From a phage, in the sequence record PZ445426.1: a DNA stretch of 58,342 nt. One strand, 5' to 3'. A model generated the notes under the pieces. It worked only from the letters and a program-made list of their open reading frames with translations. It was not told the origin of the DNA and searched no databases. The position numbers and the translations under genes are program-made. Below are positions 28,131 to 43,727 of this stretch, piece by piece. The stretch's first letter is position 1, and each line of letters starts with the position of its first letter.

Positions 28131-28150
28131 ATTTCCTCCAATGACTAAAA

Positions 28151-28182
28151 AGCCCATACCAGTATTATGACCGATATGGGCT
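28151..28182 (-). terminator. intrinsic terminator-like hairpin (AGCCCATA...TATGGGCT + U-tract) downstream of folE
   Basis: 8-bp stem read directly; plus-strand A-run gives a U-tract on the minus strand. Confidence 0.4.
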
Positions 28183-28201
28183 TGATCTGTAAAGCTATCT
28201 A

Positions 28202-28816: not shown

Positions 28817-28850
28817 GGTTTGCAGTTTCCTTGTTGTTAATGTGGTCATA

Positions 28851-29360: not shown

Positions 29361-29361
29361 T

Positions 29362-29631
29362 TTAACCCTCTTCTACTCTATTCATAAATTCCAAATGACG
29401 ACGCATAGTTTCTTCTTTTGTGGAAGAATTAAAATGCGACCAACCGTTATCTAACGAATAACCCCAGTAATACTCACCATACTTCTTCCGCATAGCTGGG
29501 ATGGGGCATTTCCTTCTTTCAAGCTTAGGATTCTGCGATCTTATATACGCTTGTTTTTCTTTAAGGCTTAATGCTTCAAACCAATCAGCTTGCTCGTGTG
29601 GCTTTAAATGCTTTGGAGGTACAGGAATCAT
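29362..29631 (-). CDS. hypothetical protein
   Basis: 89-aa ORF with AAGAGG RBS inside the que cluster. Confidence 0.4.
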   Translation of the reverse strand: MIPVPPKHLKPHEQADWFEALSLKEKQAYIRSQNPKLERRKCPIPAMRKKYGEYYWGYSLDNGWSHFNSSTKEETMRRHLEFMNRVEEG

Positions 29632-30224
29632 TTTAACACCTCTTTAGACTGTTCAATTTCTAACGCACGCTGTGCGGATGCAATAATATCTTTCAAGTCT
29701 TCTACCAGACTTTTATGACCGCGTTCGCCCGGCTGCAACGCCTTTTTAATTAAATGTTGTAAAGCTGGGTTAGTTGTTTTCCAAGCTTCCAAGACATCAT
29801 ACACGTCCACGATGCATTTTACAACATTGCCGTTTTGATCTTTACCATAAATAATTTTCTGATATTTATTCATGGGAATTTTAGATGGTTCATCTTTCGT
29901 AAAAATTGCGGTTTTATCAGTTCTCCAATCGGGCAGATTTGCTTCAATAGATTGTTTGACATAATCATCCGCAACAATATATCGCCAGGCTATAATATCT
30001 TGAACTTTATAAGGGCTATTCTCATCCATAGCTGAACGCCCTTCCATAGCCCAATCCCATCCATGTAATAGATTCTTAACGTGTGTGCCGTTGCGTAAAC
30101 GAACTTCAAACTTCTCATTACGAAGAAAAATAGGCATTCCTTTACCGTCGTGTTGGTGCCAAATTTTATTCAAATTATCTTTCATTTTACGCTCTCGCTG
30201 TACGTGAATGAACTTCGTAAACAA
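29628..30224 (-). CDS. hypothetical protein
   Basis: 198-aa ORF inside the que cluster; true start may be a downstream Met. Confidence 0.4.
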   Translation of the reverse strand: MFTKFIHVQRERKMKDNLNKIWHQHDGKGMPIFLRNEKFEVRLRNGTHVKNLLHGWDWAMEGRSAMDENSPYKVQDIIAWRYIVADDYVKQSIEANLPDWRTDKTAIFTKDEPSKIPMNKYQKIIYGKDQNGNVVKCIVDVYDVLEAWKTTNPALQHLIKKALQPGERGHKSLVEDLKDIIASAQRALEIEQSKEVLK

Positions 30225-30666
30225 CCCAAAGGATGGCAGATGCTGTGAACTTACTTAAGCTCATTGCTACCATTGATCCCGGATTAACAATACCTATAAT
30301 ACTTAAGAAGACAATAGAGTCAATTGGTACAGCTACCAAAGAGCTGATAAATACGCGTTGATGAAAAGGCTTCTTCGTAATCGTGTATACCGCATAGTCC
30401 GCAAACTCGCTAAGGGCGAAGGACGCAACGGATGCAACTACAACCGCAGGATCCCCGAACACCCAGCTAAGGATGCAACCGACAATCATTGCAGGAATAA
30501 CGCCTTTACCAGCGTTACGCTGTGCGTAGTCACGCAACACAAAGATAATACCTACAAAGAAAGCCATCATGGGGACTACGCCAAGAGGCGTGTTAAGCAT
30601 CGGAAGGTAGGAAAAGCCCAGGTTTACGAATGTAATTGCAGCCAGATAAGCAACGATAAATTTCAT
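30187..30666 (-). CDS. YhhQ-like queuosine-precursor transporter
   Basis: ATG 30666 with GGAGAA RBS; about 160 aa, multiple hydrophobic helices; lies between queD and queC. Confidence 0.5.
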   Translation of the reverse strand: MKFIVAYLAAITFVNLGFSYLPMLNTPLGVVPMMAFFVGIIFVLRDYAQRNAGKGVIPAMIVGCILSWVFGDPAVVVASVASFALSEFADYAVYTITKKPFHQRVFISSLVAVPIDSIVFLSIIGIVNPGSMVAMSLSKFTASAILWVVYEVHSRTARA

Positions 30667-30786
30667 ACTTTTGTTCTCCAGTTTTAACAGCGTTATTCGC
30701 TGGTTGTTGGGTTTAAAAGCTTTAGTAGTATAGTTGGGTCCCCGCACCCTAAACAATGCGCTAGCGGTGCGGTTTTCGCGGTAAGA

Positions 30787-31494
30787 TCAAGCTTTGCTAA
30801 TAAATTCGCTGTACCCTTTAGCACGCAGTTTGCACGCAGGACATTCACCGCAACCATATCCCCAGTCATGCAGAGTGCGACGGACGCCATTATAGCAAGT
30901 ATGGGACTGTTCAATTACTGTGGTTAAGAAACCAACCTTATCCGCCAGTTCAAACGTTTCCGCTTTGTTTAAACGCATAAGGGGGGTAACAAAATGAATA
31001 TCTGTTTCATATCCAACGTTTAACGTAGCTTCAAGGAGATCAACAAACTGCTGGCGACAATCCGGATAACCGCTATAGTCTGTTTCACAAACGCCTGTAA
31101 CCACATATCGGGCTCCAACCTTCTGCGCGTAGGCGTGCGCTGTAGTCAGGAAAAGCGCATTACGGTTTGGCACAAAGCTTGCCGGAAGGTTGTTGTGCTG
31201 TTCGTGGTGTTCGTTAACATCGCCTTCGTTCCCAATTAAAGCACTATTGCCAATCTGTTTCAAAGCAGGTAATTCAAAGACAACAAACGGGACATTGTGC
31301 TCTTTACATATCTGTTCAGCGCAAGCCAATTCCACAGTGTGACGTTGACCGTATGCAAAACCAATAGCGTAAACCTTATCATAGTTATTAAGTGCAAGAC
31401 CTAAACAGGTCACGCTGTCCTGGCCGCCAGACAGGACGACAACGGCGGAGTTATGATTTTTTACAGGGAATACCAGTTTATCTAATTTATTCAT
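30787..31494 (-). CDS. queC: 7-cyano-7-deazaguanine synthase
   Basis: N-terminal PP-loop VVVLSGGQDS; C-terminal Cys cluster (CYNGxxxxxxxGYGCGECPAC); 235 aa stand-alone. Confidence 0.8.
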   Translation of the reverse strand: MNKLDKLVFPVKNHNSAVVVLSGGQDSVTCLGLALNNYDKVYAIGFAYGQRHTVELACAEQICKEHNVPFVVFELPALKQIGNSALIGNEGDVNEHHEQHNNLPASFVPNRNALFLTTAHAYAQKVGARYVVTGVCETDYSGYPDCRQQFVDLLEATLNVGYETDIHFVTPLMRLNKAETFELADKVGFLTTVIEQSHTCYNGVRRTLHDWGYGCGECPACKLRAKGYSEFISKA

Positions 31495-31495
31495 T

Positions 31496-31684
31496 TTAGA
31501 AACCTTTAAGACTAATATTAAGGTTAATGACTACTTGTTCCACCACCGCTTCAGATGTTACCTGACGCTGGTGTATCTCAAGCTCCGAATGTATTTTCTT
31601 TGATGCAGCGCGGCAAATAGCGTCATTCAACTCGTCCTGTAAACGTTGGATTTTCTGCATAAGAATTACAGTTTCTTCATTCAT
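31496..31684 (-). CDS. hypothetical protein
   Basis: 62-aa ORF between queE and queC. Confidence 0.35.
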   Translation of the reverse strand: MNEETVILMQKIQRLQDELNDAICRAASKKIHSELEIHQRQVTSEAVVEQVVINLNISLKGF

Positions 31685-31889
31685 CTTCTACACCTTTAAT
31701 ATCACAAGGATTGATTGTTACATTTGACATCACAATTGGATGATTGCGTGCCCCAATTGTGCTAACGTGATTAATATCTAATTCTACATGCACGCCCTGC
31801 ATAGTAGCATGAGCAATTGAAGAATTAAGTTTTTCTACCAGCTCAGTGATCATTTCCTGATGCTGTTTCGCTTCTTCCAAAGTGATCAT
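31677..31889 (-). CDS. hypothetical protein
   Basis: 70-aa ORF; start overlaps queE stop. Confidence 0.35.
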   Translation of the reverse strand: MITLEEAKQHQEMITELVEKLNSSIAHATMQGVHVELDINHVSTIGARNHPIVMSNVTINPCDIKGVEDE

Positions 31890-32596
31890 TATTCCACCCC
31901 GATATATTTATGAACCTGAAGCTGCAACGTGTAACCGTGTTTCATACAGCTTTGGACAACCGCTTGGATATTGCTGTGGTTAAGGTCTTCATCCTGCTCG
32001 TCCATTGGCTGTAAATATATCTTACCCTTGAACCCCTTCGGAGGTCTAGCGATAAATGGCGTAGCTTGATGATCTAATGCTTGAAGAGGTAAACCATCTT
32101 CCACGTTTACACAGCACGCTTTAAGTACATATTTAAATGCATTAGCGCGGCGCAGCACAGAAGGATGAATCTTTGAGGTCTTGGGACTACATACAATCAC
32201 AGGTAACTGGGAAAAGTTCTTAGGTAAAGGCATAGATCCATTAGTTTCAATTTGCACCAAATACCCGCGCGATAACAGTTGTTCAATAAACGGGTTAATT
32301 TGCTGACGGAACGGTTCACCCCCAGTGATAACCACAAGTGAGGTGCTATTGCCTGATTCCAGCTTACGGCTTTCGATTAAACGCATAATATCGACAATAT
32401 GATAAAGACTACGACCAACAGTATAATCTGTATCACAGCCAGGGCATTGCAGATTACACCCAGCAAGACGCACAAATACAGCAGGTTGGCCGCAGAATGG
32501 ACCTTCACCCTGAATGGTAGAGAATACCGAATGGACGTCTAAATACATATCGTTTTCTTTAGAACGGGACTCGGGAGCTTGTTGATTAATATTCAT
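31889..32596 (-). CDS. queE: 7-carboxy-7-deazaguanine synthase (radical SAM)
   Basis: VFVRLAGCNLQCPGCDTDY (QueE-type CxxxCxxC cluster); GAGGA RBS. Confidence 0.8.
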   Translation of the reverse strand: MNINQQAPESRSKENDMYLDVHSVFSTIQGEGPFCGQPAVFVRLAGCNLQCPGCDTDYTVGRSLYHIVDIMRLIESRKLESGNSTSLVVITGGEPFRQQINPFIEQLLSRGYLVQIETNGSMPLPKNFSQLPVIVCSPKTSKIHPSVLRRANAFKYVLKACCVNVEDGLPLQALDHQATPFIARPPKGFKGKIYLQPMDEQDEDLNHSNIQAVVQSCMKHGYTLQLQVHKYIGVE

Positions 32597-32618
32597 CTTA
32601 AATCCTCTAGTGAAAAAG

Positions 32619-32665: not shown

Positions 32666-33469
32666 TTACAAGCCGTTCAGGGCTTCCGGTACTGGCATAG
32701 GCACACGACCAGTTACACCATTGAACTTCTTCCAACGTGCATACTGAGTTTTAACAGTATCTTCGTTCAGACCGTGACGACCTGCCAGATTCAGAACATA
32801 AGAGATCGGAGCAGGCTGACCCAGCGTAGCGCTAATCTGATCCATCAGAGCCCAGGCACGACCGCAGGAAGTTTCCGGTTGCGGACGGCGAACACCGTTC
32901 TGTTCAGGCATACGATTAGCTTCTTTTTCTTTCTCGCGGAGCTCTTTAGCGCGTGCTTTTTCCGCTTCTTTTTCTGCCTGTTTTGCAGCACGAATCTTGT
33001 CTTTGAAGCCTTTAATAGTAGCTTCCAGACCATCCACCAGACCCTGAGCAGAAGTTACAGCACCGGACAGGTCTTCACCTTTAGACTTCTTAACGACAGC
33101 TTTCAGCTCTTTCAGAGCTTCTTTAATGGTCTTCAGGTTTGCAGATCCCTGAGTTCCTGCTTCCGTGATCTGTTCAACAGTGCTTTCGTCGGTGACGGTA
33201 GCCAAAGAGTTTTTCAGGATTTCAGCAGCGTTAGCAATCGCATTAAATTTGTTTTCCGCTTCAATGCGGATTTCAGCTTGTTTCTTTTCAGCGGCAGCTT
33301 TTTTCTCTGCTTCTTTTTTCTCTTTTGCTACGCGTGCAGCTTCAGCAGCAGCGGCTTTCTTAGCTTCTGCATCATTCACAGTAGCTTCTTTCTTTGCAGG
33401 TTTAGCAGATTTTGCAGCGGCAGCAGCGGCAGCAGCGGCAGCGGCTTTTTTATCTTCAATGTTGCTCAT
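32666..33469 (-). CDS. Lys/Ala/Glu-rich histone-H1-like protein with poly-Ala tract
   Basis: ATG 33469 with GGAG RBS (track start 33478 is GTG); N-terminal KKAAAAAAAAAAAAK and KAAAEKK repeats; globular C-terminal 90 aa. Confidence 0.45.
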   Translation of the reverse strand: MSNIEDKKAAAAAAAAAAAKSAKPAKKEATVNDAEAKKAAAAEAARVAKEKKEAEKKAAAEKKQAEIRIEAENKFNAIANAAEILKNSLATVTDESTVEQITEAGTQGSANLKTIKEALKELKAVVKKSKGEDLSGAVTSAQGLVDGLEATIKGFKDKIRAAKQAEKEAEKARAKELREKEKEANRMPEQNGVRRPQPETSCGRAWALMDQISATLGQPAPISYVLNLAGRHGLNEDTVKTQYARWKKFNGVTGRVPMPVPEALNGL

Positions 33470-33596
33470 TCTCTTCACTCCGAATTGTTATGGGTTCGTT
33501 TGTTACCAACGGGGTTAAATGTACCAAAGGATTTTGTGACACGCAACCCCTTATCTGAACATTTTTAAAAATATTTTTGATCAAGCTTAGAACTTA

Positions 33597-34091
33597 CTAG
33601 CTCTTTGCCCCTCTTCCCGGCGTCCATGCAGCTTGCAATGCGGGTTGTTCACAAACGACCCGGGCACCGGAAATAATACCACCCTCCCGTTCAGCATCGT
33701 ATTTGACACGGGCAGGTTTCCAAAGTCCTTCATCCATTGACGGTACATATTGCCCAATTTGAGGTGAGCAAAAGCCTTGGATATCGTATTCCACACAGAA
33801 TTCGGCTTGTGCGCTGATTTGGGCGTGATCCAGGATTGTTTCTGGAAGTTGAGTAAAGTAATCAAACAAAATGCGCTCAACAATTTCCCGTTCATAAGGT
33901 GCAGCTCCTAAGTTTTCTGTCAGGTTAATATAAAGCATTTGAAGATCAACATCTTCAAGATCTTTTAAATCGTTTACTGGTGTTACCAGTGTTGACTCTG
34001 GACAACAAATAATTCCAAGTTGGTGTAGTGTCAGCCAATTGGGATGCTTTGCCAAGAGTTCAAATTTATCTGTATCAATCAGGACGTACAT
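33597..34091 (-). CDS. hypothetical protein
   Basis: 164-aa ORF in minus-strand operon. Confidence 0.45.
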   Translation of the reverse strand: MYVLIDTDKFELLAKHPNWLTLHQLGIICCPESTLVTPVNDLKDLEDVDLQMLYINLTENLGAAPYEREIVERILFDYFTQLPETILDHAQISAQAEFCVEYDIQGFCSPQIGQYVPSMDEGLWKPARVKYDAEREGGIISGARVVCEQPALQAAWTPGRGAKS

Positions 34092-34150
34092 TGCGATCCC
34101 CTATAAATAAGTAATGCCCCAATAGTAGGGGCATTAGATGTTGAAGTCAA

Positions 34151-36127
34151 TTAGAAAGGAACGTAATCCGGATCATCTACTTGTACAGGGTTAACCACAT
34201 TGTTCACCGTTATACCTTGCGTATTCTGCGAAACAATATCGTCCCAGCTTACATCATCGTTATAGCTCGGACCTTCTGTTGTTCCATCCTGCCCGTATAC
34301 TTTAATCTGAATAGCTTCGTCGTCCTGTGGAGCTTCAAACTTACCGAAACAAGTACCATCATAATCATAGTTCAATATCTCAGGCCATTTCTTATTGGTA
34401 TGAACTTTGATGTATTTTGGTGTTTTAAGCATTGCAGCAACATCAAGGGCTTCTTCAATAGTTTGTGGTAAAGGTAAATGTGTCCTTTTCTTCCACCATG
34501 CCACCGCTTTACGACCCGCCCAGTCACCATGAAGTAGAGCTACCCATTCGCTGAATATTTTACTACCGCAATAATAAGTCACCTTCATTGTTGGAGGTTT
34601 GGAGCTGTCATTGCGTTTAGTGTGCTTCGCATAAGTAACATGCGTAACTTTAAAGTCTTCAACTACAGGAATGTCCTGCTTGATCAGGGCTTCCGTACTT
34701 GCAGCTTTCTTGAGTTTGGTCTGGAACTTAAACTCATGGCCGCAAAAGCCTTCTTTAACGTAATCCGTCCCGCGTAGCCTAAAACCTTTCAGATATAATT
34801 GTTGAACTTGTTCCTGTGTGACGCTGTCCATTGGGATTGGTGCGAAGCCACCGCAATAGCGAGCGGATGCATGATTATACGACCCACATACATCGCATTC
34901 TTTAACCGGAGCAGTGCCAGCACCTTTTTCGCCCGGGCGCTTGGGTTTAACAGGGTCGTTAATAGGGCCCAAACGGCGCGTATTACCGCTGAAATCCAGT
35001 ACAAGGCAGTTCTGCTTGGGGCTTGCCGCAATAGCTTGTAAGCGTCCCTCCTGCGTGGAAAGATCAAAGCCCTCCGCGTACACCGGACGCGTACCGCGAC
35101 CCAGCATCTGAACCCATAACACCGCCGACGCAGTGGGGCGAAGCATGATAATCAGATCAAGCATTGGATGGTCGAAACCTGTGGTTAAGACGTTGTTGTT
35201 CGTTAACGCACGAAATTCACCGCGCTTGAACTTTTCAATAATCTCGTCACGCTCTTTTGCATCAAGCTTTGAGTGAATACATCCGCAACTAATACCCATA
35301 TCATTCAGCATATCACACGCATCTTTAGCGTGTTCAATACCAGAACAAAATATAAGCCAGCTTTGACGGTCTTCACCACATTCAATGGCTTCCTCAAGTG
35401 CGCGGAGTGTTGCGTCGTCGCGATTTACCGCACTTTGCAGCTCACTTTGAATAAACTCACCACCGCGTTTCCCTACCCCGTTGAGGTCCAACTCCATCTT
35501 TGTACGCTTCGGCACAACCGGAAGCAAATAACCTTGCTCCAGGAACCAGTTAAAGGCTTCAGGGGTAGTTGCATCAAACGTTACTTTATCAAATAAAGCA
35601 TCATCGTCTTCGTTTTCCTTAACAATTGAGCCGTAACCCAGTCGATAAGGTGTAGCGGTAAGACCGATAATTTTTAAATACGGGTTAACTTCACGCAATG
35701 CTGCAAAGAACTTCTTATACATTGTTGCATCACGCGGACTAATAAGGTGCGCTTCATCCACAAAGATTAGATCAACCTTGCCAAACTTTTTAGGATGCTT
35801 AGCAACAGATGCAATCCCCGCAAATGTGATAAGATTATAAACTTCTTTACGCTTCAAACCTGCGCTGTAAATACCTGCTGGCGCTTCAGGCCAGACTTTC
35901 ATTAATTTATCATAGTTTTGCGCAATCAACTCTTTGACGTGAGTTAACATCATTACGCGCTGGTTTGGATACCATTTATAAAGCAGATCGAGGAACCCCG
36001 CGATAACGAGCGATTTTCCTGTCCCTGTTGGTAACAGGATCAAAGGGTTCCCCGCGTTACCCTTTTCAGCATCAAAATAGCGGAATACGCTATAAACTGC
36101 TTCCTGTTGATAATCTCTTAATTTCAT
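34151..36127 (-). CDS. SF2 DEAD/DEAH-box helicase
   Basis: motif I LLPTGTGKS, motif II DEAH, motif III TATP, motif VI QMLGRGTR; C-terminal Cys-rich extension. Confidence 0.8.
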   Translation of the reverse strand: MKLRDYQQEAVYSVFRYFDAEKGNAGNPLILLPTGTGKSLVIAGFLDLLYKWYPNQRVMMLTHVKELIAQNYDKLMKVWPEAPAGIYSAGLKRKEVYNLITFAGIASVAKHPKKFGKVDLIFVDEAHLISPRDATMYKKFFAALREVNPYLKIIGLTATPYRLGYGSIVKENEDDDALFDKVTFDATTPEAFNWFLEQGYLLPVVPKRTKMELDLNGVGKRGGEFIQSELQSAVNRDDATLRALEEAIECGEDRQSWLIFCSGIEHAKDACDMLNDMGISCGCIHSKLDAKERDEIIEKFKRGEFRALTNNNVLTTGFDHPMLDLIIMLRPTASAVLWVQMLGRGTRPVYAEGFDLSTQEGRLQAIAASPKQNCLVLDFSGNTRRLGPINDPVKPKRPGEKGAGTAPVKECDVCGSYNHASARYCGGFAPIPMDSVTQEQVQQLYLKGFRLRGTDYVKEGFCGHEFKFQTKLKKAASTEALIKQDIPVVEDFKVTHVTYAKHTKRNDSSKPPTMKVTYYCGSKIFSEWVALLHGDWAGRKAVAWWKKRTHLPLPQTIEEALDVAAMLKTPKYIKVHTNKKWPEILNYDYDGTCFGKFEAPQDDEAIQIKVYGQDGTTEGPSYNDDVSWDDIVSQNTQGITVNNVVNPVQVDDPDYVPF

Positions 36128-36636
36128 AAAGGTCTCACTGTTCTATGATTCTTGTTAAACCCGTATGTAATTTCAGCCTCTTTTCTTGTCTTTATTGCGT
36201 CTTGTAGACTTTCAAAATAACCAAGATGCAGCCGAATACCGTATACATCAATCTGAGCTTTCCATTTCTTATTTGCCTTAGCCCACGTTACTCCAGGACA
36301 ACCGCTCTTATTATTCGATGGTAGTTTTCTATTATGGTTGTTATGGTATTTATTACTTTTATTTAGATTAGTTTTCCAATTATGCGTACCGTCACCATCA
36401 TCATGATCAATATATTCTGGTTCTTCGTTATAGAGCATTTTCCAGATTATACGATGTGCGTAATAATTAAGACCGTTCATAAAAACCATAATATAGGTTT
36501 TACCATGACTAAAAGTAACTTCACTCCCTGCAATTTGACCGTTATGGTTCCAGAATAAGTTACCGCTATCTTCGCTATAGCTAAAAATCCTATTGAGTTC
36601 TTCTTGCGTCGGTAGCGGCAACCTTTTCATAATCAA
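36124..36636 (-). CDS. HNH homing endonuclease with AP2 DNA-binding domain
   Basis: HRIIW...IDHDDGDGTHN (HNH) followed by GVTWAKANKKWKAQI...LGYFES (AP2-like). Confidence 0.65.
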   Translation of the reverse strand: MIMKRLPLPTQEELNRIFSYSEDSGNLFWNHNGQIAGSEVTFSHGKTYIMVFMNGLNYYAHRIIWKMLYNEEPEYIDHDDGDGTHNWKTNLNKSNKYHNNHNRKLPSNNKSGCPGVTWAKANKKWKAQIDVYGIRLHLGYFESLQDAIKTRKEAEITYGFNKNHRTVRPL

Positions 36637-37541
36637 TCTTTCCCGTAATAATTAGCTACTTGATAGTTTTGACAACCAACTTTCTGTCCTTGCGTATCCA
36701 CTGAGGCGGAATGGAAATTGCAATACCATGTTCCATCTTCTTTTGGTTCAAGGAATTGACATGTGCGGCAGTTTACTTCCGGCATAGTTTTACGCCAGCA
36801 TAGTGAGGAGTGATCGCACCATTTACATTCGAAGAAAGTGGAATCTTTAAACGCGCGGTCCGGAATATCTGTAGCAATAGCAATCTGCACACCACGATCA
36901 ATATACATGTCCGCGGTAACAGGATCAAACGGAATAATTTCTGCGTAAACTTCATCGTCATTCTTGTTTACAGCAAGATATAACGCTGCGCCAAGACCTA
37001 GTTTTCGCATGTACACGTTCATCTGTACATAGTGCTCAGGTTTGGCTTCTTTGACACCTTTAGCTTTCAGCTTTTTAAAAGACTTATCGTTATGGGTTTT
37101 CATTTCGGTAAGCACAGGCATCCCAGGCTGCACGTCCGGACAACCTATAACCACACCATCGCAGGAACCGCCAAAGTGTCCGCCAGCTTCGCTGATACGG
37201 AACTGGTGTCCGTTTTCATCCTGCTGGTAGACCTGCATACCTGCCGCAAGAAGCATAGCAATAAAGCGCGCTTCTTCCAGATGTCCGCGGTTAAACAGTC
37301 GAAGCTGGCGTCCGTCAAACTCTTTGCGTGTAGCCCAGCGATATCCATAGAAAAGCTTTCGTGCGCATTGTTGACCAATAAGGGAAGCGCCTAAGTGACT
37401 GCGGTTACCGCTTTCAGGACGATAAGCGTCTTCAATTGTGGGAATAACTACGCCAAGATACTTACGGTAAGTCCCACCCTGATCTTTTTGCACACCATCA
37501 TTGATCGCTTGAAGTGTTTTTTCTGCAATATAAATAGCCAT
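36633..37541 (-). CDS. PD-(D/E)xK nuclease (Cas4/RecB-like exonuclease) with C-terminal Cys cluster
   Basis: D...EMK core, QMNVY motif, four C-terminal cysteines (CKWCDHSSLC...CRTC) consistent with an Fe-S cluster. Confidence 0.55.
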   Translation of the reverse strand: MAIYIAEKTLQAINDGVQKDQGGTYRKYLGVVIPTIEDAYRPESGNRSHLGASLIGQQCARKLFYGYRWATRKEFDGRQLRLFNRGHLEEARFIAMLLAAGMQVYQQDENGHQFRISEAGGHFGGSCDGVVIGCPDVQPGMPVLTEMKTHNDKSFKKLKAKGVKEAKPEHYVQMNVYMRKLGLGAALYLAVNKNDDEVYAEIIPFDPVTADMYIDRGVQIAIATDIPDRAFKDSTFFECKWCDHSSLCWRKTMPEVNCRTCQFLEPKEDGTWYCNFHSASVDTQGQKVGCQNYQVANYYGKD

Positions 37542-37606
37542 TGGAATACCTTAGAAAAATAAGCCGTCTTTCGACGGCTTATGGACACTACAGAGGGAGG
37601 GTTAAC

Positions 37607-38488
37607 TTACTGCTGCCACGGCGGGACTGCTGCTTGTGCCGGATGCGGTTCAGCTTGCTGCTGAGGCTGAGCTTGCTGCTGAGGTGCTGCTGCCTGGCCT
37701 GGCTGTGCTACCTGCTGCGCCCACGGCTGCTGAGCTGCTTCCGGTGCTACTGGCTGTTGTACCGGAGCTTGCTGCACTGGCTGCTGTGGTGCTGCATTTT
37801 GAGCAGGATTATCCCACGGCTGCGGTGCGGCGTTCTGCCACGGTTGAGCTGCTGCGCCCTGCTGCGGTGCTGGTTGCTGCACAGGCTGCTGAACTGGCTG
37901 CTGTTGCTGCACCGGAGCTTGCTGCTGTACAGGTGCTTGCTGTTGCTGAGCAAACGGGTTAGCTGCTGGTTGCCGAGGTGCTGCGCCCGGGAAAGCTGGC
38001 TGCTGTGCTGGAGCACCTGCACCAAACGGGTTAGCTACTGCTGGAGCACCCATTGATGAAGCCTCTGCTGCTTTTTCTGCATATTTAACCGGATCGTTGA
38101 TGTTAGCGTAACCGTTAGGCTCGTTGCTGTCTTCATAACCTTCCTGAGAACGAACTTTCAGACGCAGGTTCAGCGGAATGTTATGCAGCTGAGCAGGGGT
38201 ATCCCAGCGAATTACACCAACCGCATGGGACAGAGCACCCAGTTGCTCGTAAGCGATGCGTACAGTATCTTCGTTGTCGTTAATGACGTTATAACGAGCA
38301 AAGATTTTACGCCCTTTAGCAAAACCGTCAATGATGCTAAACGTTACCTGGATCGCCATACCGCCGTTTTTGGTCGGTTTAAATTCAGATGCTTCAATTA
38401 CTGCTTTATACCAACCTTTCGGCAATGCGCCGTAAGAAGGTGCTTGATAGCTGCTCGCGTCAAAGTGGAAATTAGTTGGCATAGTCAT
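37607..38488 (-). CDS. putative ssDNA-binding protein with long Gln/Pro/Ala-rich low-complexity tail
   Basis: about 140-aa globular N-terminus then about 150 aa of PVQQ/AQQ repeats; directly downstream of Sak4-like ATPase. Confidence 0.45.
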   Translation of the reverse strand: MTMPTNFHFDASSYQAPSYGALPKGWYKAVIEASEFKPTKNGGMAIQVTFSIIDGFAKGRKIFARYNVINDNEDTVRIAYEQLGALSHAVGVIRWDTPAQLHNIPLNLRLKVRSQEGYEDSNEPNGYANINDPVKYAEKAAEASSMGAPAVANPFGAGAPAQQPAFPGAAPRQPAANPFAQQQQAPVQQQAPVQQQQPVQQPVQQPAPQQGAAAQPWQNAAPQPWDNPAQNAAPQQPVQQAPVQQPVAPEAAQQPWAQQVAQPGQAAAPQQQAQPQQQAEPHPAQAAVPPWQQ

Positions 38489-39216
38489 TAGTTGATACCT
38501 TTCATTTTGTTGATAACAGAACCTAAGTGTGGGACTTCAACCGCATCTAAACGTCCCGAACGATCCTTAGCGATTGTATTAAAGTCCGGTTGAGTTTGCA
38601 AGTAACGATACGAGTTACCTTGCTGATCCTTATTTACATTCAGACGAAATACTTCGTCGAAGAAATAAGGGAGCATTTGCCCCAATTTGGACCCAGGCAT
38701 TGATGGAGCATACGCGGTAACACCGGAGACTTCATCTTTGTCTTTGCCCATTTTAGCAGACATATAAACATGTTTGCCAGGAATATCGCGAAACTTACGG
38801 ATTAGATCTTGCATCTTTTCAAGCAAAGTACCATAAGCTTGACGAGGATCTTTCGTTCCCTTTTTCGCGTTGTTTAAACATTGTTCAGCAATTTCGCTCA
38901 AGCTGTCAAGCGCAATAGAATCGAAATACTGCTGGTTAGCTGGAGTTACGCACCACTGATAAGCCGCTTCAACGTCTTCCAGACATTTCACTTCAATTAC
39001 CGGAATATCGTAAACGATGGGTAAACCCATGTTACCATAAACACGGTTAAGGTTTTCCGCTGCAATAGACAACAGACCGGATTCTGCGCTGATTAAAATT
39101 GGTTTAGGTAATGTGGCTACAAGGCTGGTTTTACCCATACCCGCTTCACCGTAAACCAGAATTTTAACACCTGTGTCCTGCACAACTTGTGAAGACATTT
39201 TAATTTCAATGGCCAT
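38488..39216 (-). CDS. Sak4-like RecA-fold ATPase
   Basis: Walker A YGEAGMGKTS near N-terminus; 242 aa; paired with SSB-like gene. Confidence 0.6.
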   Translation of the reverse strand: MAIEIKMSSQVVQDTGVKILVYGEAGMGKTSLVATLPKPILISAESGLLSIAAENLNRVYGNMGLPIVYDIPVIEVKCLEDVEAAYQWCVTPANQQYFDSIALDSLSEIAEQCLNNAKKGTKDPRQAYGTLLEKMQDLIRKFRDIPGKHVYMSAKMGKDKDEVSGVTAYAPSMPGSKLGQMLPYFFDEVFRLNVNKDQQGNSYRYLQTQPDFNTIAKDRSGRLDAVEVPHLGSVINKMKGIN

Positions 39217-39281
39217 TTAACGCCTCTCTTTTAAGTTCGCGCTCATTGTAACGTAATATACTTTGAACCCTCAATTACTTT

Positions 39282-40196
39282 TTAATCTAAAGCCTGATCA
39301 CTTTCATCGCGGAAATGCATAAAGTTTGCAAAACGCGGTTTATCTTTCACGCCATGAGGGAAGTGTTTATATGAAATAGTCCGACCTTTAATTTTGTCAG
39401 GGTTATTCCAATAATAAATCTTATCCTCTTGCGTTAGTTTACCAGGACTAACGTTGATTGTATTACCCGTCTTAACGTCTTTACAAACCAACGTCCCAAT
39501 CATACCGTTAGGAACTTTATTTTCCTGATGCGAAGATCGTGTAGTCCTGCCCAGCTCGTTAACAGTAGCTTCATTAAGGTTAGTTTCGCCCTCAATAATA
39601 TCAAGGACAATAGCGTCTTCCTGAATAAAGCGTTTAATACGAAGATATCCACCTTCACGAACTGTGCCGCGCCCATGTTTATAAGGCTTGTCAGGATCAC
39701 GGATAATAATACCTTCATAACCCATATCAAGCCAGATATTTTCCCAGTAGAGCAGCTCTTGTAAAGACTTAACCACATACATTGGCACAACTTGCAGGTC
39801 GAGCAATTCACCTTTCGCGTGCTGTGTGGTTATAAAATCTTTCATCATGTTGTAGCGGGCTTCATAGCCCAGCTCTGCAACACTCTCAGCGCACAGATCA
39901 AAGATGTGCCATTTCAGGAACGGTTCACCTTCAATTGTGTTTACCGCACTGGTTGTTTTACGACACAGGTCTGGATCTGTTTCCACCCCTGCCGCAAGCT
40001 CACCGTCATAGCCCATGTATTGAGAACCGCTGAAAATTGCGCTGGTATGGCGGTTTTTAAACAGCTTTAAGCTTCGCCCTACTATCTGCCCGTCCGGATT
40101 TAAACCGCGTACACCGTCGATTTTAGGCAGTATACAGCACGGAAACTTAATCTTTTCTTCAACCGCGTCAGTCGCTAAATGTGGTTTAAATGCCAT
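39282..40196 (-). CDS. ATP-dependent DNA ligase
   Basis: motif I KxDG (LPKIDGVRG); ATG 40196 with GAGG RBS. Confidence 0.7.
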   Translation of the reverse strand: MAFKPHLATDAVEEKIKFPCCILPKIDGVRGLNPDGQIVGRSLKLFKNRHTSAIFSGSQYMGYDGELAAGVETDPDLCRKTTSAVNTIEGEPFLKWHIFDLCAESVAELGYEARYNMMKDFITTQHAKGELLDLQVVPMYVVKSLQELLYWENIWLDMGYEGIIIRDPDKPYKHGRGTVREGGYLRIKRFIQEDAIVLDIIEGETNLNEATVNELGRTTRSSHQENKVPNGMIGTLVCKDVKTGNTINVSPGKLTQEDKIYYWNNPDKIKGRTISYKHFPHGVKDKPRFANFMHFRDESDQALD

Positions 40197-40204
40197 TGTT
40201 AACC

Positions 40205-40828
40205 TCATTCATAATAATCATGTTGATGAGAACTGCCACGTATACCGCAACGTTCTAAAAGTATTGCAGCTTTTTGAGCTTTCTCTTTCATACGGGTATT
40301 ACGGTGTAAATGTCCGCTACCCTTTTTAGGTCTATTTTCCTTTTTCTTTGCTTCGGAAATAAGCTCTTTGCATTCCTGCAAACGGATCTTGCTTCTTTCC
40401 AATCGCATAGCAGAACGCGCACGTTCATCGCAAAATCTTTGGGCTTTACTACGCTGGTCCTGATTACTTGTATGACCTTTAACGTGGCGAAACTCAATAG
40501 TAAGATTATATTTACGAAGTTGATCGTTCAACCATTTGAAAGCTACACCTTCCTGTTCACTTTTCCAGCTTGCCTCTTTATACACTTTAATAGCAGTTGA
40601 ACAATCTGTTTGCACAATTAAATGATCGCCTGGATGGATTAATTTAGCCTTCATTCCCTCCCAAATAACATTACAGATTGCCATTGTTTCAGCTGCATTA
40701 TTATCAGGAGCTCCACGTAACGGTCCACCGTTAGCGTTATTTCCACGGTTACACACTACCCATCCACCGTATCCCGCGGCTTTTGTATTTGGACAAAAAC
40801 TTGCATCGGATATAATTGTTACTCGCAT
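40205..40828 (-). CDS. ribonuclease H
   Basis: ATG 40828 with AGGAG RBS; IISDASF, AAETMAI, IVQTDCS and HVKGHTSNQD match RNase H DEDD/HxxGH pattern. Confidence 0.6.
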   Translation of the reverse strand: MRVTIISDASFCPNTKAAGYGGWVVCNRGNNANGGPLRGAPDNNAAETMAICNVIWEGMKAKLIHPGDHLIVQTDCSTAIKVYKEASWKSEQEGVAFKWLNDQLRKYNLTIEFRHVKGHTSNQDQRSKAQRFCDERARSAMRLERSKIRLQECKELISEAKKKENRPKKGSGHLHRNTRMKEKAQKAAILLERCGIRGSSHQHDYYE

Positions 40829-40871
40829 AATAACTCCTGTTAAAAAGGGGTCTACTGACCCCTTTAGTTTA

Positions 40872-41663
40872 TTACAGTTTGTCTTTGAACTCTTCGATAT
40901 ATTGCTCGATCGGATACTGCTTACGCTTGAAACGATCAAACAAGATTTTAGCTGCGGTTACGTCTTCTTTATTCTCCTTATTTGCGCCAGGAGCCATAAA
41001 ATCACGCCACGTGAAACCGTTCAAAGTATGCATGTTTGCAATGTGTTTATTGTAACGACTTTCCCAGTCCACACGCGGACCTTCTATCTTGCGCAAACCG
41101 CGTCCAAGAACTTGTACATATAAATCTTTCTGATGTTGTACAGCTTCGCTATTATAAGGTCCGGTTTTAAACTCAACAACACTACCGTTAAGATCTACAC
41201 CATCCGCAAAGTTGTGTAGCATAGTTTCAATAACGTCATTCAATGTTGGAACCATCACTTTGCCCTGGGCAATACCTGCCAAATAACCGACATTTTCTTC
41301 ACCGTACAACTCGATCAGTTCTTTCTTGGTCGCTTCTGCTTCTTTGTTTGCGGACAAAGCCAACATCTGTTGTTCGAACATATGTTCCTGTTCCAGGAAG
41401 TGAGCATAACGCTCTTTGTCTACTTTGCACACAATCCATTTATATTCGACATCCTTGCTGAAGTCCGGATACTGATCCACTTCTACTACTTCCGTAGTAA
41501 AAAACTTGCCGTTATATTGAATAACAACAGTATCGCCCGGTTGTAATTCGTCGCTTTCCAGGGCACGGTAGGTATAAAGACGACCACCTGCTTCAAACTT
41601 AACTTTGACAGTTACAACACCTTTTAACAGGGCATGATAAGCTTTCTGAAATTCTTTACGCAT
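40872..41663 (-). CDS. hypothetical protein
   Basis: 263-aa ORF in replication module. Confidence 0.45.
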   Translation of the reverse strand: MRKEFQKAYHALLKGVVTVKVKFEAGGRLYTYRALESDELQPGDTVVIQYNGKFFTTEVVEVDQYPDFSKDVEYKWIVCKVDKERYAHFLEQEHMFEQQMLALSANKEAEATKKELIELYGEENVGYLAGIAQGKVMVPTLNDVIETMLHNFADGVDLNGSVVEFKTGPYNSEAVQHQKDLYVQVLGRGLRKIEGPRVDWESRYNKHIANMHTLNGFTWRDFMAPGANKENKEDVTAAKILFDRFKRKQYPIEQYIEEFKDKL

Positions 41664-41704
41664 TTTAGTTTCCTCTTGGGCGGTTGATCCGCCCGTTAAT
41701 GTGG

Positions 41705-42115
41705 TTAAGCTTTATTTGGAACGATTTCCAGTGACGCAGATCCAACTTTAGATTCAACGCACTGGTTGAAGACTGCGGCTTGCTCCGCTGTAAGTTTACG
41801 CCAAGCCGCGACTTTCAATACAGGTTTATTTTCCACAAGCTGATCAACGTTAACACCAACTTTAATCAGATCGCCCAGGATCCCGTTAAGGCTTGGAAGA
41901 TCAATCTTACGATCAATCTTGTGGGTCATTTTCATAACCCCGCCAGTAATTTCAACTTTATTAGTCCCTTCAGATGGAGCAGGGAAATAGGACTTAATAA
42001 TCTTTTCGCGTAGTGCTCGCTCGCGAGCTTGAAGCTTTTGTAATTCTGCTTTAGTTTTATACCACTCAATTACATCTGCTTCTGTTGCTTGTACTGCTTT
42101 ATCTGCGTCGAACAT
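41705..42115 (-). CDS. hypothetical protein
   Basis: ATG 42115 with GAGGA RBS preferred over track start 42175. Confidence 0.4.
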   Translation of the reverse strand: MFDADKAVQATEADVIEWYKTKAELQKLQARERALREKIIKSYFPAPSEGTNKVEITGGVMKMTHKIDRKIDLPSLNGILGDLIKVGVNVDQLVENKPVLKVAAWRKLTAEQAAVFNQCVESKVGSASLEIVPNKA

Positions 42116-42178
42116 TTTTCTGTCCTCTGTTGTGTTTCGATATATGTATAGTAGCACATCCATGTGCTTAGGCAAGAC

Positions 42179-42772
42179 TTATTTTTTATCTAAATGACGT
42201 GAAGTCATGATCGGATGCGTAGCAGCTTCTTCCTCTGCTGTAACCACATTGGCAGACGTGCCAGTAGACCCGAAGCCGTTAGCACCGCGCTCAGTAGTTT
42301 TGAGCTCGTCTACTTCTACCAGTTGCACGCAAGGCACCTTAATAAGCATAGCTTGCGCAATACGATCACCATGACTAACGGTAAAACTACCATCATGATC
42401 AATAGTAAGCTTAACTTTAACTTCGCCAGTGTAATCGCTATCAATAACGCCCACGCAGTTTGCCAAACGCACGTCATTTTTGAATCCGTGTCCACTACGG
42501 GAATAGACCATAAGCGCATACCCTTTAGGAATATCAAACGCTAGCCCTGTGCGGAATATGTACTCGTTATAGAAATTTATTTGGTCGCAATCGTCTTCGC
42601 TTTTAAGATCCGCGTGCAGGTCAAAACAAGCTGCCCCGGCAGTAGCGAACGCTGGTAGAATTGCGGTGTCTGTTAAGAGCTTCACACCGACCGGAATTGT
42701 GCTTAATGATGCAGCAAGTTTTTCAACATCAATTGCAAAAGAACTTTCTGTGTTATTTAATACGTCAGTCAT
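42179..42772 (-). CDS. dut: dUTP diphosphatase
   Basis: dUTPase motifs: AGAACFDL, YSRSGHG, GVIDSDYTGEV. Confidence 0.8.
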   Translation of the reverse strand: MTDVLNNTESSFAIDVEKLAASLSTIPVGVKLLTDTAILPAFATAGAACFDLHADLKSEDDCDQINFYNEYIFRTGLAFDIPKGYALMVYSRSGHGFKNDVRLANCVGVIDSDYTGEVKVKLTIDHDGSFTVSHGDRIAQAMLIKVPCVQLVEVDELKTTERGANGFGSTGTSANVVTAEEEAATHPIMTSRHLDKK

Positions 42773-42784
42773 AATTTCACCTTA

Positions 42785-43249
42785 TTAAGAATATGTGCCT
42801 GTTTGCACAATGTGATTAATAGCATGTGCTCTGAAGATTTCTCTAAAATCTTCAAGTTCTATTGTGGCACGAATTGGTTCCTTTTTAATATAATGATTGA
42901 ACTCATTAATATCAAAGACGGAAGGGTTCATACATATAACAACTTTCCAACCCGCTCTAGGAATCTTATACATTAAGACCGGGATTTTATTACATTCCTG
43001 TGCAGACTTAACAGTTTGCTTCCACCATGTGTTAACAGCAAGAGTTGCATGGTTTTTAATCTCTACACAATATTGGCAAGTATTATCAATATCCGCACCA
43101 CCTACAGCGGATTGATTTTGTCGCCTTTGTGCAATAGGTTTAGGTGGTAACGGTTTACCAATAAGCTTATGCACTTCAGCATAAATATCGTTGAAAAAAT
43201 CGCAGGCTTCCCTTTCAGCTCTCTGACCTTTTTGACGTATGTTGACCAT
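42785..43249 (-). CDS. putative PD-(D/E)xK resolvase-like nuclease
   Basis: ATG 43249; GADIDNTCQYCVEIK resembles a D...E.K nuclease core; weak call. Confidence 0.3.
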   Translation of the reverse strand: MVNIRQKGQRAEREACDFFNDIYAEVHKLIGKPLPPKPIAQRRQNQSAVGGADIDNTCQYCVEIKNHATLAVNTWWKQTVKSAQECNKIPVLMYKIPRAGWKVVICMNPSVFDINEFNHYIKKEPIRATIELEDFREIFRAHAINHIVQTGTYS

Positions 43250-43727
43250 GATTTGCAAATTCCTTATGTAATTCCAATCTTTTAGCTCTAACCCAAGCTT
43301 TAGCAGCTTGTAAACCTTCAGGTGTAAATTCAAAATATTTTGATACCAGAACACCTCTTACATGTAAGTTTGCATAGTAAACTTGAATACCGTTATGTTT
43401 TGTAATGGTTACACACTTGACACCAGTTTTTGAGTCTTTACGAATAACCATATTATAATTGTTCTGTGAACGATCAGCCAGTCTAAGATTTTCTATTCTG
43501 TTATCGTCTCGAACTCCATTAATATGATCAATTATCATGCCTTCGGGGATATCACCATTGAAGTATTGCCATATTAATCTGTGAGCAAAATAAAATTTCT
43601 TATCAATCTTACCTTGGATATAACCATCCTGACGTCTTGTACCAAATGGTCTTTTATTATATCCGTTTTTATTTCTTTGAAATAATTTGCCATCTATATA
43701 AATAAAACGATCGTTTACATTGATCAT
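43215..43727 (-). CDS. HNH homing endonuclease
   Basis: ATG 43727 with AGGAGG RBS; HRLIWQYFNG...IDHINGVRDDNRIENLRL; preceded by a terminator. Confidence 0.65.
   Translation of the reverse strand: MINVNDRFIYIDGKLFQRNKNGYNKRPFGTRRQDGYIQGKIDKKFYFAHRLIWQYFNGDIPEGMIIDHINGVRDDNRIENLRLADRSQNNYNMVIRKDSKTGVKCVTITKHNGIQVYYANLHVRGVLVSKYFEFTPEGLQAAKAWVRAKRLELHKEFANHGQHTSKRSES

Follow-up and report, generated by a model that had tools for sequence, protein, structure and literature searches.

The window, i.e. the whole 58,342-nucleotide stretch of DNA analysed here (PZ445426.1), is a near-complete Seuratvirus genome sharing 95–96% identity with phages SA80RD, CAjan, and Seurat. Three ORFs encoding a Sak4-like ATPase, a DUF669 protein, and a nuclease lie in a row at positions 36633–39216, all on the minus strand, as the original prediction had placed them. 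Together with a RadD-like helicase gene, they form a block of four conserved genes transcribed leftward; over the block region, CAjan is 96% identical to the window. The locus is composed of the following:

38488..39216, minus strand: Sak4-like, core-only RecA-type ATPase (AAA_24), 242 aa (Pfam and PHROG matches, motifs)
38084..38488, minus strand: predicted OB-fold DNA-binding domain of the DUF669 protein, residues 1–135
37607..38083, minus strand: Q/A/P-rich tail of the DUF669 protein, presumably disordered (from composition)
36633..37541, minus strand: PD-(D/E)xK nuclease of the Cas4/lambda-Exo/RecB superfamily, 302 aa, a predicted 5'-3' exonuclease
36124..36636, minus strand: free-standing HNH homing endonuclease gene (PHROG 99, 8.3e-53)
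34151..36127, minus strand: RadD(YejH)-like SF2 helicase, 658 aa, the fourth block member (PDB, NCBIfam, and Pfam matches)

In RefSeq, the corresponding genes of near relatives are labelled as ‘Sak4-like ssDNA annealing protein’, DUF669, and ‘Cas4-domain exonuclease’. The Sak4–SSB–nuclease module of Seuratvirus is already known and, because it is annotated in a described phage genus, its re-identification matters little. Genes for a ligase, an RNase H, a dUTPase, a primase-helicase (DUF3987 and an NrS-1 prim-pol domain), a clamp, and a polymerase are located near the block, as is a gene for a PDDEXK_15 nuclease, which is annotated as a RusA-like resolvase in CAjan. The 91 CDSs annotated in CAjan include no second SSB or recombinase (a result based on annotation and not on an exhaustive search).

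The Sak4-like ATPase is short (core of <290 aa), has no extra DNA-binding domains, and contains both Walker motifs:

39127–39150, minus strand: Walker A, GEAGMGKT (G23–T30)
38902–38916, minus strand: Walker B, IALDS (D104)

The protein matched Pfam AAA_24 over residues 16–220 with 97.4 bits (cut-off, 27) and PHROG 124 (‘Sak4-like ssDNA annealing protein’; 1.7e-59), which agrees with the Sak4-like Walker A ATPase recognized earlier at this position. Residues E45, R204, and R219 are invariant in an alignment of eight genera. A profile search against PDB sequences yielded P-loop-level matches only. The protein aligns over its full length with the Sak4 protein (ORF032) of phage PA73 (28% identity, E = 3e-30), whereas comparisons with HK620 Sak4 by BLASTP and hhalign gave nothing significant, the Walker A motif alone being aligned. 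The start codon of the DUF669 gene overlaps the stop codon of the Sak4-like gene (TAATG), and the two genes are translationally coupled.

The DUF669 protein, previously described as an SSB-like ORF, matched Pfam DUF669 with 52.5 bits (cut-off, 21), and its predicted structure is an OB fold, both in keeping with that description. When its N-terminal domain was used as a single query, two proteins were retrieved (owing to the word-index limit), whereas the eight-genus alignment as a query gave 1553 matches. The nearest solved fold is PrgE of plasmid pCF10 (PDB 8s4s), which binds both ssDNA and dsDNA (PMC11137577); no sequence similarity between the two proteins was detected by HMMER. PrgE is encoded in a conjugation operon, and its crystal structure (128 residues) contains no counterpart of the Q/A/P-rich tail. 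This tail contains 46 Q, 39 A, and 31 P in 153 residues and four ‘PW’ motifs (W217, W225, W256, and W291), and ends in the conserved tip VPPWQQ (…AAVPPWQQ; PPW at 37616–37624). W291 shows no variation in eight genera. The tails of DUF669 homologues are enriched in tryptophan; xW is present within the last 10 residues of 114 of 121 homologues, and at least three acidic residues are present in only 5 of the 121. The acidic C-terminal tail described for DUF669 proteins by Kazlauskas et al., which is also typical of SSBs, is absent from the window protein and from its clade. The occurrence of PW motifs in place of an acidic tip on an SSB-like protein may be an unreported feature. Because it is the sole SSB candidate annotated in the near-identical CAjan, the DUF669 protein probably serves as the replicative SSB too, rather than as a dedicated recombination cofactor; a role as a replication SSB has been proposed for DUF669 proteins by Kazlauskas et al. 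(PMC4889955).

The conserved sites of the nuclease are as follows:

37098–37160, minus strand: catalytic D128…E146xK148
37365–37367 and 36798–36827, minus strand: Cas4-type cysteines, C59 and C239xxC242x5C248, respectively
36672–36770, minus strand: second Cys4 set, C258xxC261…C274…C290

D128, E146, K148, Q173, and Y177 (PD-(D/E)xK and QxxxY motifs) do not vary in 32 sequences, and the first four are also invariant in the eight-genus alignment. C59, C239, C242, and C248, likewise unvaried, follow the Cas4 pattern of one N-terminal Cys plus CxxCx5C. The Cas4/RecB-like PD-(D/E)xK nuclease of the original prediction is therefore upheld by the catalytic motifs, fold, and cysteines, but not by family models: no Pfam family was matched at E ≤ 0.01, including Cas_Cas4, PDDEXK_1, and YqaJ, nor was any NCBIfam model. 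Of the three HMM searches suggested as a check, those for AAA_24 and DUF669 thus exceeded their cut-offs and that for Cas4 did not. The four-Cys cluster noted before was correct as to its four residues but incomplete, as the invariant cysteines number eight and fall into two sets of four. PHROG 1990 is the sole family label of the nuclease; of its distant relatives, P0256 matches Cas_Cas4 at 24.6 bits, and P0269 scores 20.6 bits against YqaJ, which is under the cut-off. In structural comparison, the nuclease is equally near lambda exonuclease and Cas4; its best neighbours are recombination exonucleases, and its neighbours also include the flap nucleases Dna2 and MGME1 and the Cas4-like nuclease R354 of mimivirus. 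It is Cas4-like in fold and cysteine pattern only. Compared with the ‘iron-staple’ nucleases Cas4, AddB, Dna2, and EXO5, it lacks a match to Pfam Cas_Cas4 or PDDEXK_1 and any CRISPR context, and the additional invariant C-terminal Cys4 module is confined to this family of phage nucleases. In an exhaustive search with the 54-aa segment carrying this module, nearly all matches were located at the C-terminus of the same type of nuclease (~200–400 aa). A few long multi-domain matches (LRR, cadherin, and Ig repeats) look spurious, and the search yielded no separate domain family. The second invariant Cys4 cluster may also be an unreported feature.

The Cas4-type cysteine pattern and fold, together with the structural match to mimivirus R354, might suggest that the nuclease is a mere neighbour of the Sak4/SSB pair that acts in counter-defence or host takeover, either by degrading host DNA or by interfering with or feeding CRISPR adaptation, a role proposed for certain Cas4 proteins of phages. 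In Campylobacter phages, a link between the phage's own Cas4 and the acquisition of spacers has been described. Such a role is nevertheless very improbable here: the CAjan annotation contains no cas genes, the window has no CRISPR-like repeat array (the search gave only a coding low-complexity repeat at 33282–33457), and the protein is structurally as near lambda Exo as Cas4. Its position between the DUF669 and RadD-like helicase genes is invariant in all informative loci, which argues for a partnership in DNA metabolism.

The core of the fourth protein is clearly homologous to that of the Escherichia coli helicase RadD (YejH). Residues 3–348 match RadD (PDB 6jde) with an E value of 1e-54, and Pfam ResIII and Helicase_C are both matched. 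NCBIfam heli_RadD_YejH was matched with 263.8 bits over model positions 1–359 of 573, the equivalog cut-off being 720, and the C-terminal half differs from that of RadD. Four cysteines that are unvaried in eight genera (C411, C414, C425, and C462) lie beyond the core, in the region of the RadD zinc ribbon (PMC9049331). RadD speeds RecA strand exchange and binds SSB, and the window helicase is encoded beside an SSB and a protein of the RecA superfamily, the same kinds of partners (PMC8887467, PMC10238739). Whereas host RadD binds the SSB tip, the window helicase itself ends in an SSB-like tip, DDPDYVPF (34154–34177), which resembles the bacterial sequence DDDIPF; DDDIPF-like ends were found in 47 of 71 homologues. 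That most helicases of this type terminate in the bacterial SSB tip may likewise be unreported. Assignment of this protein as the replicative helicase was considered and rejected: the phage encodes a separate primase-helicase, a polymerase, and a clamp, so the RadD-like protein need not be the replicative helicase.

The same gene order and strand were found in Nonagvirus, Amoyvirus, Septimatrevirus, Rosemountvirus, Nipunavirus, a Vibrio phage, and Kleczkowskavirus. Of the IMG/VR loci, 50 of 50 carry DUF669 upstream of the nuclease, 49 of these with AAA_24 directly upstream of DUF669, and the RadD-like helicase is located downstream of the nuclease on the same strand in 68 of 68. The idea that the three genes in 36633–39216 make up a self-contained system therefore has to be abandoned, as the helicase outside this interval is an invariant fourth member. 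The adjacency of the Sak4-like, DUF669, and nuclease genes is far above chance, and the conservation of this order speaks for a joint function. An incidental row of three unrelated or mis-called ORFs, a reading favoured by nothing more than the missing Pfam match of the nuclease, has a negligible probability given the strong HMM matches, the confident predicted folds, and the translational coupling of Sak4 and DUF669; it is refuted by the synteny counts, the order being kept in at least 7 genera and in 50–68 metagenomic loci. Promoter-like sites are not enriched in the window (25 versus 18.1 ± 4.1 in shuffled sequences), and the operon structure is thus unproven. Two terminator-like hairpins, each identified by consensus match only, are present:

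37559..37582, minus strand: 10-bp stem and T-run, within the 65 bp separating the SSB-like and nuclease genes
34112..34136, minus strand: hairpin immediately after the helicase stop codon

Judging from sequence similarity, the block is orthologous to ORF032–ORF029 of the Pseudomonas phage PA73 (Septimatrevirus), which encode Sak4, SSB, a Cas4-domain exonuclease, and an SF2 helicase in the same order and on the same strand. The OB cores of the SSBs share 39% identity (E = 2e-18), and the nucleases share 33% (E = 3e-59). The two phages differ in their hosts; in addition, the PA73 nuclease contains an insertion of ~50 residues, the PA73 locus has an extra small ORF-sized gap, and the PA73 helicase (the Septimatrevirus row of the alignment) lacks the DDDIPF-like tip that the window helicase has. 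A system consisting of an exonuclease and Sak4 was proposed earlier for PA73 and KL1 (PMC3483164). Recombineering by PA73 Sak4 in E. coli was weak, ~4-fold over background (PMC2896510, PMC5928155), and a Walker A mutant retained part of the activity (PMC2896510). PA73 Sak4 was tested alone because the PA73 SSB is toxic in E. coli, and the pair was therefore never tested together (PMC5928155).

In the temperate phage HK620, the genes for Sak4 (HkaL) and SSB (HkaK) are arranged as in the window, with a core-only RecA-like ATPase immediately followed by a non-canonical SSB, and the Sak4 proteins of both phages match Pfam AAA_24. The HK620 genes are, however, paired with Abc2, a RecBCD hijacker, and lack an exonuclease and a helicase of their own. 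Comparisons of the DUF669 protein with HK620 SSB by BLASTP and hhalign were not significant, and HK620 SSB does not match Pfam DUF669 by HMMER; the link between HK620 SSB and DUF669 rests on an HHpred statement in PMC5928155. As the HK620 pair, which has been characterized biochemically, is not detectably similar, PA73 was used as the anchor, and no direct homology to HK620 is claimed. The premise that Sak4-type annealases act with a cognate SSB is documented for HK620, in which the two proteins cooperate via C-terminal residues of the SSB, and the tail tip NDYPPF is needed to stimulate annealing (PMC5928155); it is also documented for staphylococcal phages, in which Sak4 and SSB are both needed for replication and concatemer formation (PMC5499656). 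A Pro-Pro-aromatic tip is common to HK620 SSB and the DUF669 protein, but the latter ends in PPW and not in the acidic/aromatic tip of HK620, so that its contact with Sak4 is proposed by analogy.

We consider it likely that the four genes constitute a recombination or recombination-dependent-replication block of Seuratvirus (Queuovirinae) that functions by single-strand-annealing recombination. The mechanism proposed here proceeds from the genes present, their family and fold assignments, the catalytic and cysteine motifs, the Sak4/SSB coupling, and the near-invariant synteny, and borrows every biochemical activity (annealing, end resection, and the Fe–S cluster) and protein–protein contact from homologues. 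The nuclease would resect the 5' strand at double-strand ends, such as genome termini, breaks, and collapsed forks, and the DUF669 protein, probably the only SSB of the phage and thus serving the fork as well, would coat the exposed 3' single strand. Its presumably disordered tail with the PW motifs may recruit and stimulate the Sak4-like ATPase, which would anneal the ssDNA with its complement in an ATP-dependent reaction. Extension or branch migration of the joint would then fall to the RadD-like helicase, by analogy with the action of RadD for RecA, and the products could be finished by the nearby ligase, RNase H, and PDDEXK_15 nuclease. The expected outcome would be concatemer formation, repair, and replication restart. 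Compared with lambda Red (Exo/Beta) and RecET, whose annealases form Rad52-like rings, the annealase candidate of the window is a RecA-superfamily ATPase, and the block includes its own SSB and helicase but no Gam. Lambda Exo also lacks the eight conserved cysteines of the window nuclease.

Alternatively, the block may be mainly replisome equipment, in which the DUF669 protein serves as replicative SSB and the Sak4-like ATPase as a helicase/primase loader or mediator, the nuclease trims 5' flaps and primers from Okazaki fragments, and the helicase remodels forks. The location among replication genes (in Septimatrevirus, the clamp and polymerase genes directly follow the block), the status of DUF669 as the sole SSB candidate with its proposed replication role, the flap nucleases among the structural neighbours, and the replication defects of staphylococcal phage Sak4 and Ssb mutants (PMC5499656) are all consistent with such equipment. 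We nonetheless regard this explanation as rather unlikely: the phage already encodes its own RNase H and primase-helicase, recombination exonucleases rank first among the structural neighbours of the nuclease, and the AAA_24/Sak4 proteins tested so far anneal DNA (PMC5928155, PMC2896510), with no loader activity known. The two explanations also overlap, since recombination-dependent replication is both.

With annealing-based recombination retained as the preferred function, the three unusual features of this widespread block suggest, tentatively, that the SSB interaction code has been rewired. The acidic tip of the SSB may have been replaced by PW motifs that recruit Sak4, the SSB tip carried by the helicase may dock on the host SSB interactome or on the phage polymerase or clamp, and the nuclease may hold two metal centres. 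The tails of T7 gp4 and gp2.5, which dock onto a phage polymerase or clamp, provide a parallel for the helicase tip. No description of the helicase SSB-tip mimic, the SSB PW motifs, or the second Cys4 site of the nuclease was found in the searchable literature; if confirmed, these features would be relevant to SSB interaction networks and Fe–S nucleases. Sak4, the DUF669 SSB, and the exonuclease of this E. coli phage, possibly with the RadD-like helicase, represent a candidate RecA-independent recombineering toolkit of modest practical value.

The HNH gene of the window is inserted precisely at the junction where the nuclease gene stops and the helicase gene starts, and its true start is likely the ATG at 36630. 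In CAjan, the HNH gene is missing, and the nuclease and helicase genes abut. This gene is a recent homing-endonuclease insertion outside the conserved block and, among phage records, was found only in slur01 and SA80RD.

The ATPase, SSB-like and nuclease genes that the original prediction described as a recombination module at 36633-39216 are all present in a row, on the minus strand and in the order noted, which is also that of transcription. The prediction is real and was correctly read in outline, and the gene order is conserved among related phages. The extent assigned to the module was too small, however, and its boundaries should take in the gene for a RadD-like helicase. The block contains the following features.

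38488-39216, minus strand: Sak4-like ATPase, 242 aa (AAA_24, PHROG 124)
37607-38488, minus strand: DUF669 SSB-like protein, 293 aa (Pfam DUF669, three SSB PHROGs)
37610-38083, minus strand: Q/A/P-rich tail of the DUF669 protein, with four PW motifs (W217, W225, W256 and W291) and a conserved PPW tip
37559-37582, minus strand: terminator-like hairpin between the SSB-like and nuclease genes (consensus match only)
36633-37541, minus strand: nuclease, 302 aa (PHROG 1990)
36672-36770, minus strand: second invariant Cys4 set of the nuclease, residues 258-290, after the Cas4-type cysteines (alignments)
36124-36636: HNH homing endonuclease gene at the exact nuclease-stop/helicase-start junction (PHROG 99, 8.3e-53)
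34151-36127, minus strand: RadD-like SF2 helicase, 658 aa (6jde, NCBIfam heli_RadD_YejH)
34112-34136, minus strand: terminator-like hairpin after the helicase gene (consensus match only)

The one-strand order AAA_24, DUF669, nuclease and SF2 helicase is kept in seven annotated genomes (Nonagvirus, Amoyvirus, Septimatrevirus, the myovirus Rosemountvirus, Nipunavirus, a Vibrio phage and Kleczkowskavirus), with zero to two small genes inserted on either side of the nuclease gene. An IMG/VR sample of 80 loci encoding nuclease homologues (46-98% identity) was also analysed by scanning six-frame ORFs with HMMs built from alignments made here. Within this sample, which was selected by nuclease similarity and represents one broad clade rather than all phages, a same-strand DUF669 gene lies upstream in 50/50 loci whose sequence extends 3.5 kb or more in that direction, and a same-strand helicase gene lies downstream in 68/68 loci that extend 2.5 kb or more on that side. 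The DUF669 gene is directly preceded by an AAA_24 gene in 49 of the 50 loci (29 of the window subfamily and 20 of a divergent one). The HNH gene is an outsider to the block, because the nuclease stop and helicase start abut in CAjan, an annotated Seuratvirus, with no HNH gene between them, and the insertion is limited among phage records to slur01 and SA80RD, most Seuratviruses being without it. Its sequence context is that of a free-standing homing endonuclease. The first helicase codons differ at this junction (MKLRDYQQ versus MQLRDYQQ).

By nucleotide similarity, the window is a near-complete Seuratvirus (Queuovirinae) genome, because megablast of 34000-42200 against phage records gave 34 matches with 90-99% identity, the best being Escherichia phage vB_EcoS_SA80RD (96.3% identity, 100% cover), with CAjan and Seurat also among the best. 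In the CAjan RefSeq record, the three genes are labelled 'Sak4-like ssDNA annealing protein', 'hypothetical protein … DUF669' and 'Cas4-domain exonuclease'; ligase and RNase H genes precede them and a 'DNA helicase' then comes after. Both this type of module and the phage are known, and public records already annotate the trio.

The ATPase matches Pfam AAA_24 (97.4 bits; cut-off 27) and PHROG 124, 'Sak4-like ssDNA annealing protein' (1.7e-59). The Walker A motif noticed in the original prediction is found at G23EAGMGKT30, with Walker B at IALD104S, and an eight-genus alignment shows no variation in the Walker residues, E45, R204 or R219. The Sak4 family consists of core-only RecA/Rad51-like ATPases (PMC2896510), and the cooperation of its members with a cognate SSB, as assumed in the original prediction, is documented. 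The Sak4 of phage HK620 is an ATP-dependent annealase boosted by an adjacently encoded SSB, which acts via its own last six residues, NDYPPF, and was assigned to DUF669 by the authors through remote homology (PMC5928155); replication and concatemer formation in staphylococcal phages need Sak4 and its Ssb (PMC5499656). In Firmicutes phages, ssb (DUF669 included) and ResIII/Helicase_C helicase genes are typically located downstream of sak4 (PMC8093625). The divergent AAA_24 subfamily (approximately 275 aa; 82-105 bits on Pfam AAA_24), which takes the place of the window-type Sak4 in 20/50 loci, has an altered P-loop, e.g. IAAQEKVGKTT; such ORFs lie just upstream of DUF669 in the related phage loci L022, L028, L034, L037, L053, L066, L074, L086 and L090.

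The SSB-like assignment was borne out by Pfam DUF669 (52.5 bits; cut-off 21) and by matches to three PHROGs named SSB. The ATG of the DUF669 gene overlaps the Sak4 stop (TAATG), and this overlap indicates that the two genes are translationally coupled. DUF669 has been proposed as the replicative SSB in phages without any other SSB (PMC4889955). The DUF669 protein is probably the only SSB of the phage, because no second SSB, and no other recombinase, is annotated in CAjan. Its tail ends in VPPWQQ and is non-acidic, with W291 invariant across genera. Among 121 homologues, the last ten residues contain xW in 114 and are acidic in only 5, and tryptophan accounts for 3.7% of residues in the tails of 117 homologues, which are otherwise rich in Q, A and P. 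DUF669 proteins are generally described with acidic tails (PMC4889955), a generalization that these sequences contradict for this clade. The tip resembles the Pro-Pro-aromatic tip of the HK620 SSB, and the non-acidic, PW-bearing tail may be new.

Beyond the tip, the HK620 proteins are distant: only the Walker A segment of HK620 Sak4 aligns with the window ATPase in BLASTP (hhalign probability 22%), and BLASTP and hhalign gave nothing significant between the two SSBs. HK620 Sak4 barely passes AAA_24 (30 bits), and its SSB does not match DUF669 by HMMER. Sequence comparison points to the Pseudomonas phage PA73, a Septimatrevirus, as a better anchor, with ORF032 (Sak4, tested in vivo; 28%, E 3e-30), ORF031 (SSB; 39% over the OB core, E 2e-18), ORF030 (Cas4-domain exonuclease; 33%, E 3e-59) and ORF029 (SF2 helicase) in the same order as in the window. 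PA73 Sak4 gave recombineering about 4-fold over background, and its SSB was toxic, which made co-testing with Sak4 impossible (PMC2896510, PMC5928155). An exonuclease and Sak4 were previously suggested to form a 'conserved recombination system' in PA73 and KL1 (PMC3483164).

The Cas4-like reading of the nuclease was upheld by PHROG 1990, 'Cas4-domain exonuclease' (5.7e-118), whereas Pfam and NCBIfam gave no match; neither the nuclease nor the ATPase or DUF669 protein has a significant PDB sequence match. Residues D128, E146, K148, Q173 and Y177, together with C59, C239, C242 and C248, are invariant in 32 homologues (53-73% identity), and correspond by alignment to the PD-(D/E)xK set and the C…CxxCx5C pattern of Cas4/AddB-type nucleases. 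The structural model places the protein in the lambda-Exo/Cas4/RecB superfamily, because its best structural neighbours are 5'-3' exonucleases or 5'-flap nucleases. The core fold is closer to neither Cas4 nor lambda Exo, and the likeness to Cas4 comes from the cysteine pattern. The four-Cys cluster originally noticed is real but covers only half of the eight invariant cysteines, which form two sets of four; the second set is C258-x2-C261-x12-C274-x15-C290, in the signature 'NCR(T/S/N)C…W.C…GC..Y'. It is kept in 32/32 close homologues and 8/8 genera, and an exhaustive search found the 54-aa segment almost only at the C-terminus of same-type nucleases. The segment is modelled as three short strands and a helix, consistent with a putative zinc-ribbon-like or second Fe-S site, and this set may also be new.

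Residues 3-348 of the helicase match 6jde (E 1e-54), and the protein scores 264 bits against NCBIfam heli_RadD_YejH, under the equivalog cut-off of 720; its sequence is homologous to that of E. coli RadD. Its C-terminus is DDPDYVPF (34154-34177). Of 71 complete homologues (comparison loci of related phages L002:7902-9905, L003:8428-10221 and L006:8066-9841, and the IMG/VR loci L012-L091), 47 end in a DDDIPF-type tip, in most cases identical to the last six residues of bacterial SSB. Phage T7 provides a precedent, as its gp4 helicase and gp2.5 SSB both bind the polymerase via acidic, Phe-terminated tails. No report was found for DDDIPF with phage and helicase in the full-text literature, the coverage of which is incomplete, so novelty is unproven, and an SSB-type tip on a RadD-like helicase may be new. 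This tip, the second Cys4 set and the PW tail are side observations worth a short follow-up. Because RadD binds SSB and speeds up strand exchange by RecA (PMC8887467, PMC10238739), a RadD-like protein beside a RecA-like ATPase and an SSB would be functionally coherent.

The function proposed for the block rests on homology. Most likely, and with fair probability, the nuclease would resect 5' strands at DNA ends, and the 3' single strand would be coated by the DUF669 OB-fold protein, whose tail would recruit the Sak4-like ATPase to anneal it to complementary ssDNA; the RadD-like helicase would then drive branch migration or joint extension, and ligase and a resolvase would complete the products. 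Such a pathway would lead to recombination-dependent replication, concatemer formation and repair. A counter-defence role of the nuclease is very improbable, as its gene keeps the same place between those for the SSB and the helicase and a CRISPR-like repeat search of the window revealed no CRISPR context. The main alternative, a block that works chiefly as part of the replisome, is rather unlikely, and it overlaps the recombination mechanism because both processes almost certainly rely on this SSB. Other proteins encoded by the phage include a primase-helicase (DUF3987 and NrS-1 prim-pol domain), a polymerase, a beta-clamp-like processivity factor, RNase H, ligase and dUTPase. The two hairpins would fit two expression levels within the block, high for Sak4 and SSB and lower for the nuclease and helicase; promoter-like sites showed no enrichment over shuffles. 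Further features flank the block.

42785-43354, minus strand: second PD-(D/E)xK protein (Pfam PDDEXK_15, 2.4e-13)
41705-42175, minus strand: conserved gene, DUF7173
40872-41663, minus strand: conserved gene, PHROG 27666, with a sub-threshold PriA 3'-DNA-binding-domain match
32666-33478, minus strand: ORF with an Ala/Lys/Glu-rich low-complexity N-terminal half and a run of about ten alanines
about 27000-32600, minus strand: 7-deazaguanine DNA-modification cluster (tRNA-guanine transglycosylase-like DpdA, GTP cyclohydrolase, QueD, QueC and QueE; comparison with the CAjan annotation)

The PDDEXK_15 match clashes with the CAjan label of the first protein, 'RusA-like Holliday junction resolvase'. 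The PHROG 27666 and DUF7173 genes lie upstream of RNase H and may be part of the same replication/recombination cluster. The ORF at 32666-33478, whose counterpart in CAjan carries the label FtrA-domain transcriptional activator, contains the sole direct-repeat family found in the window (33282-33457). The 7-deazaguanine cluster is typical of Queuovirinae.
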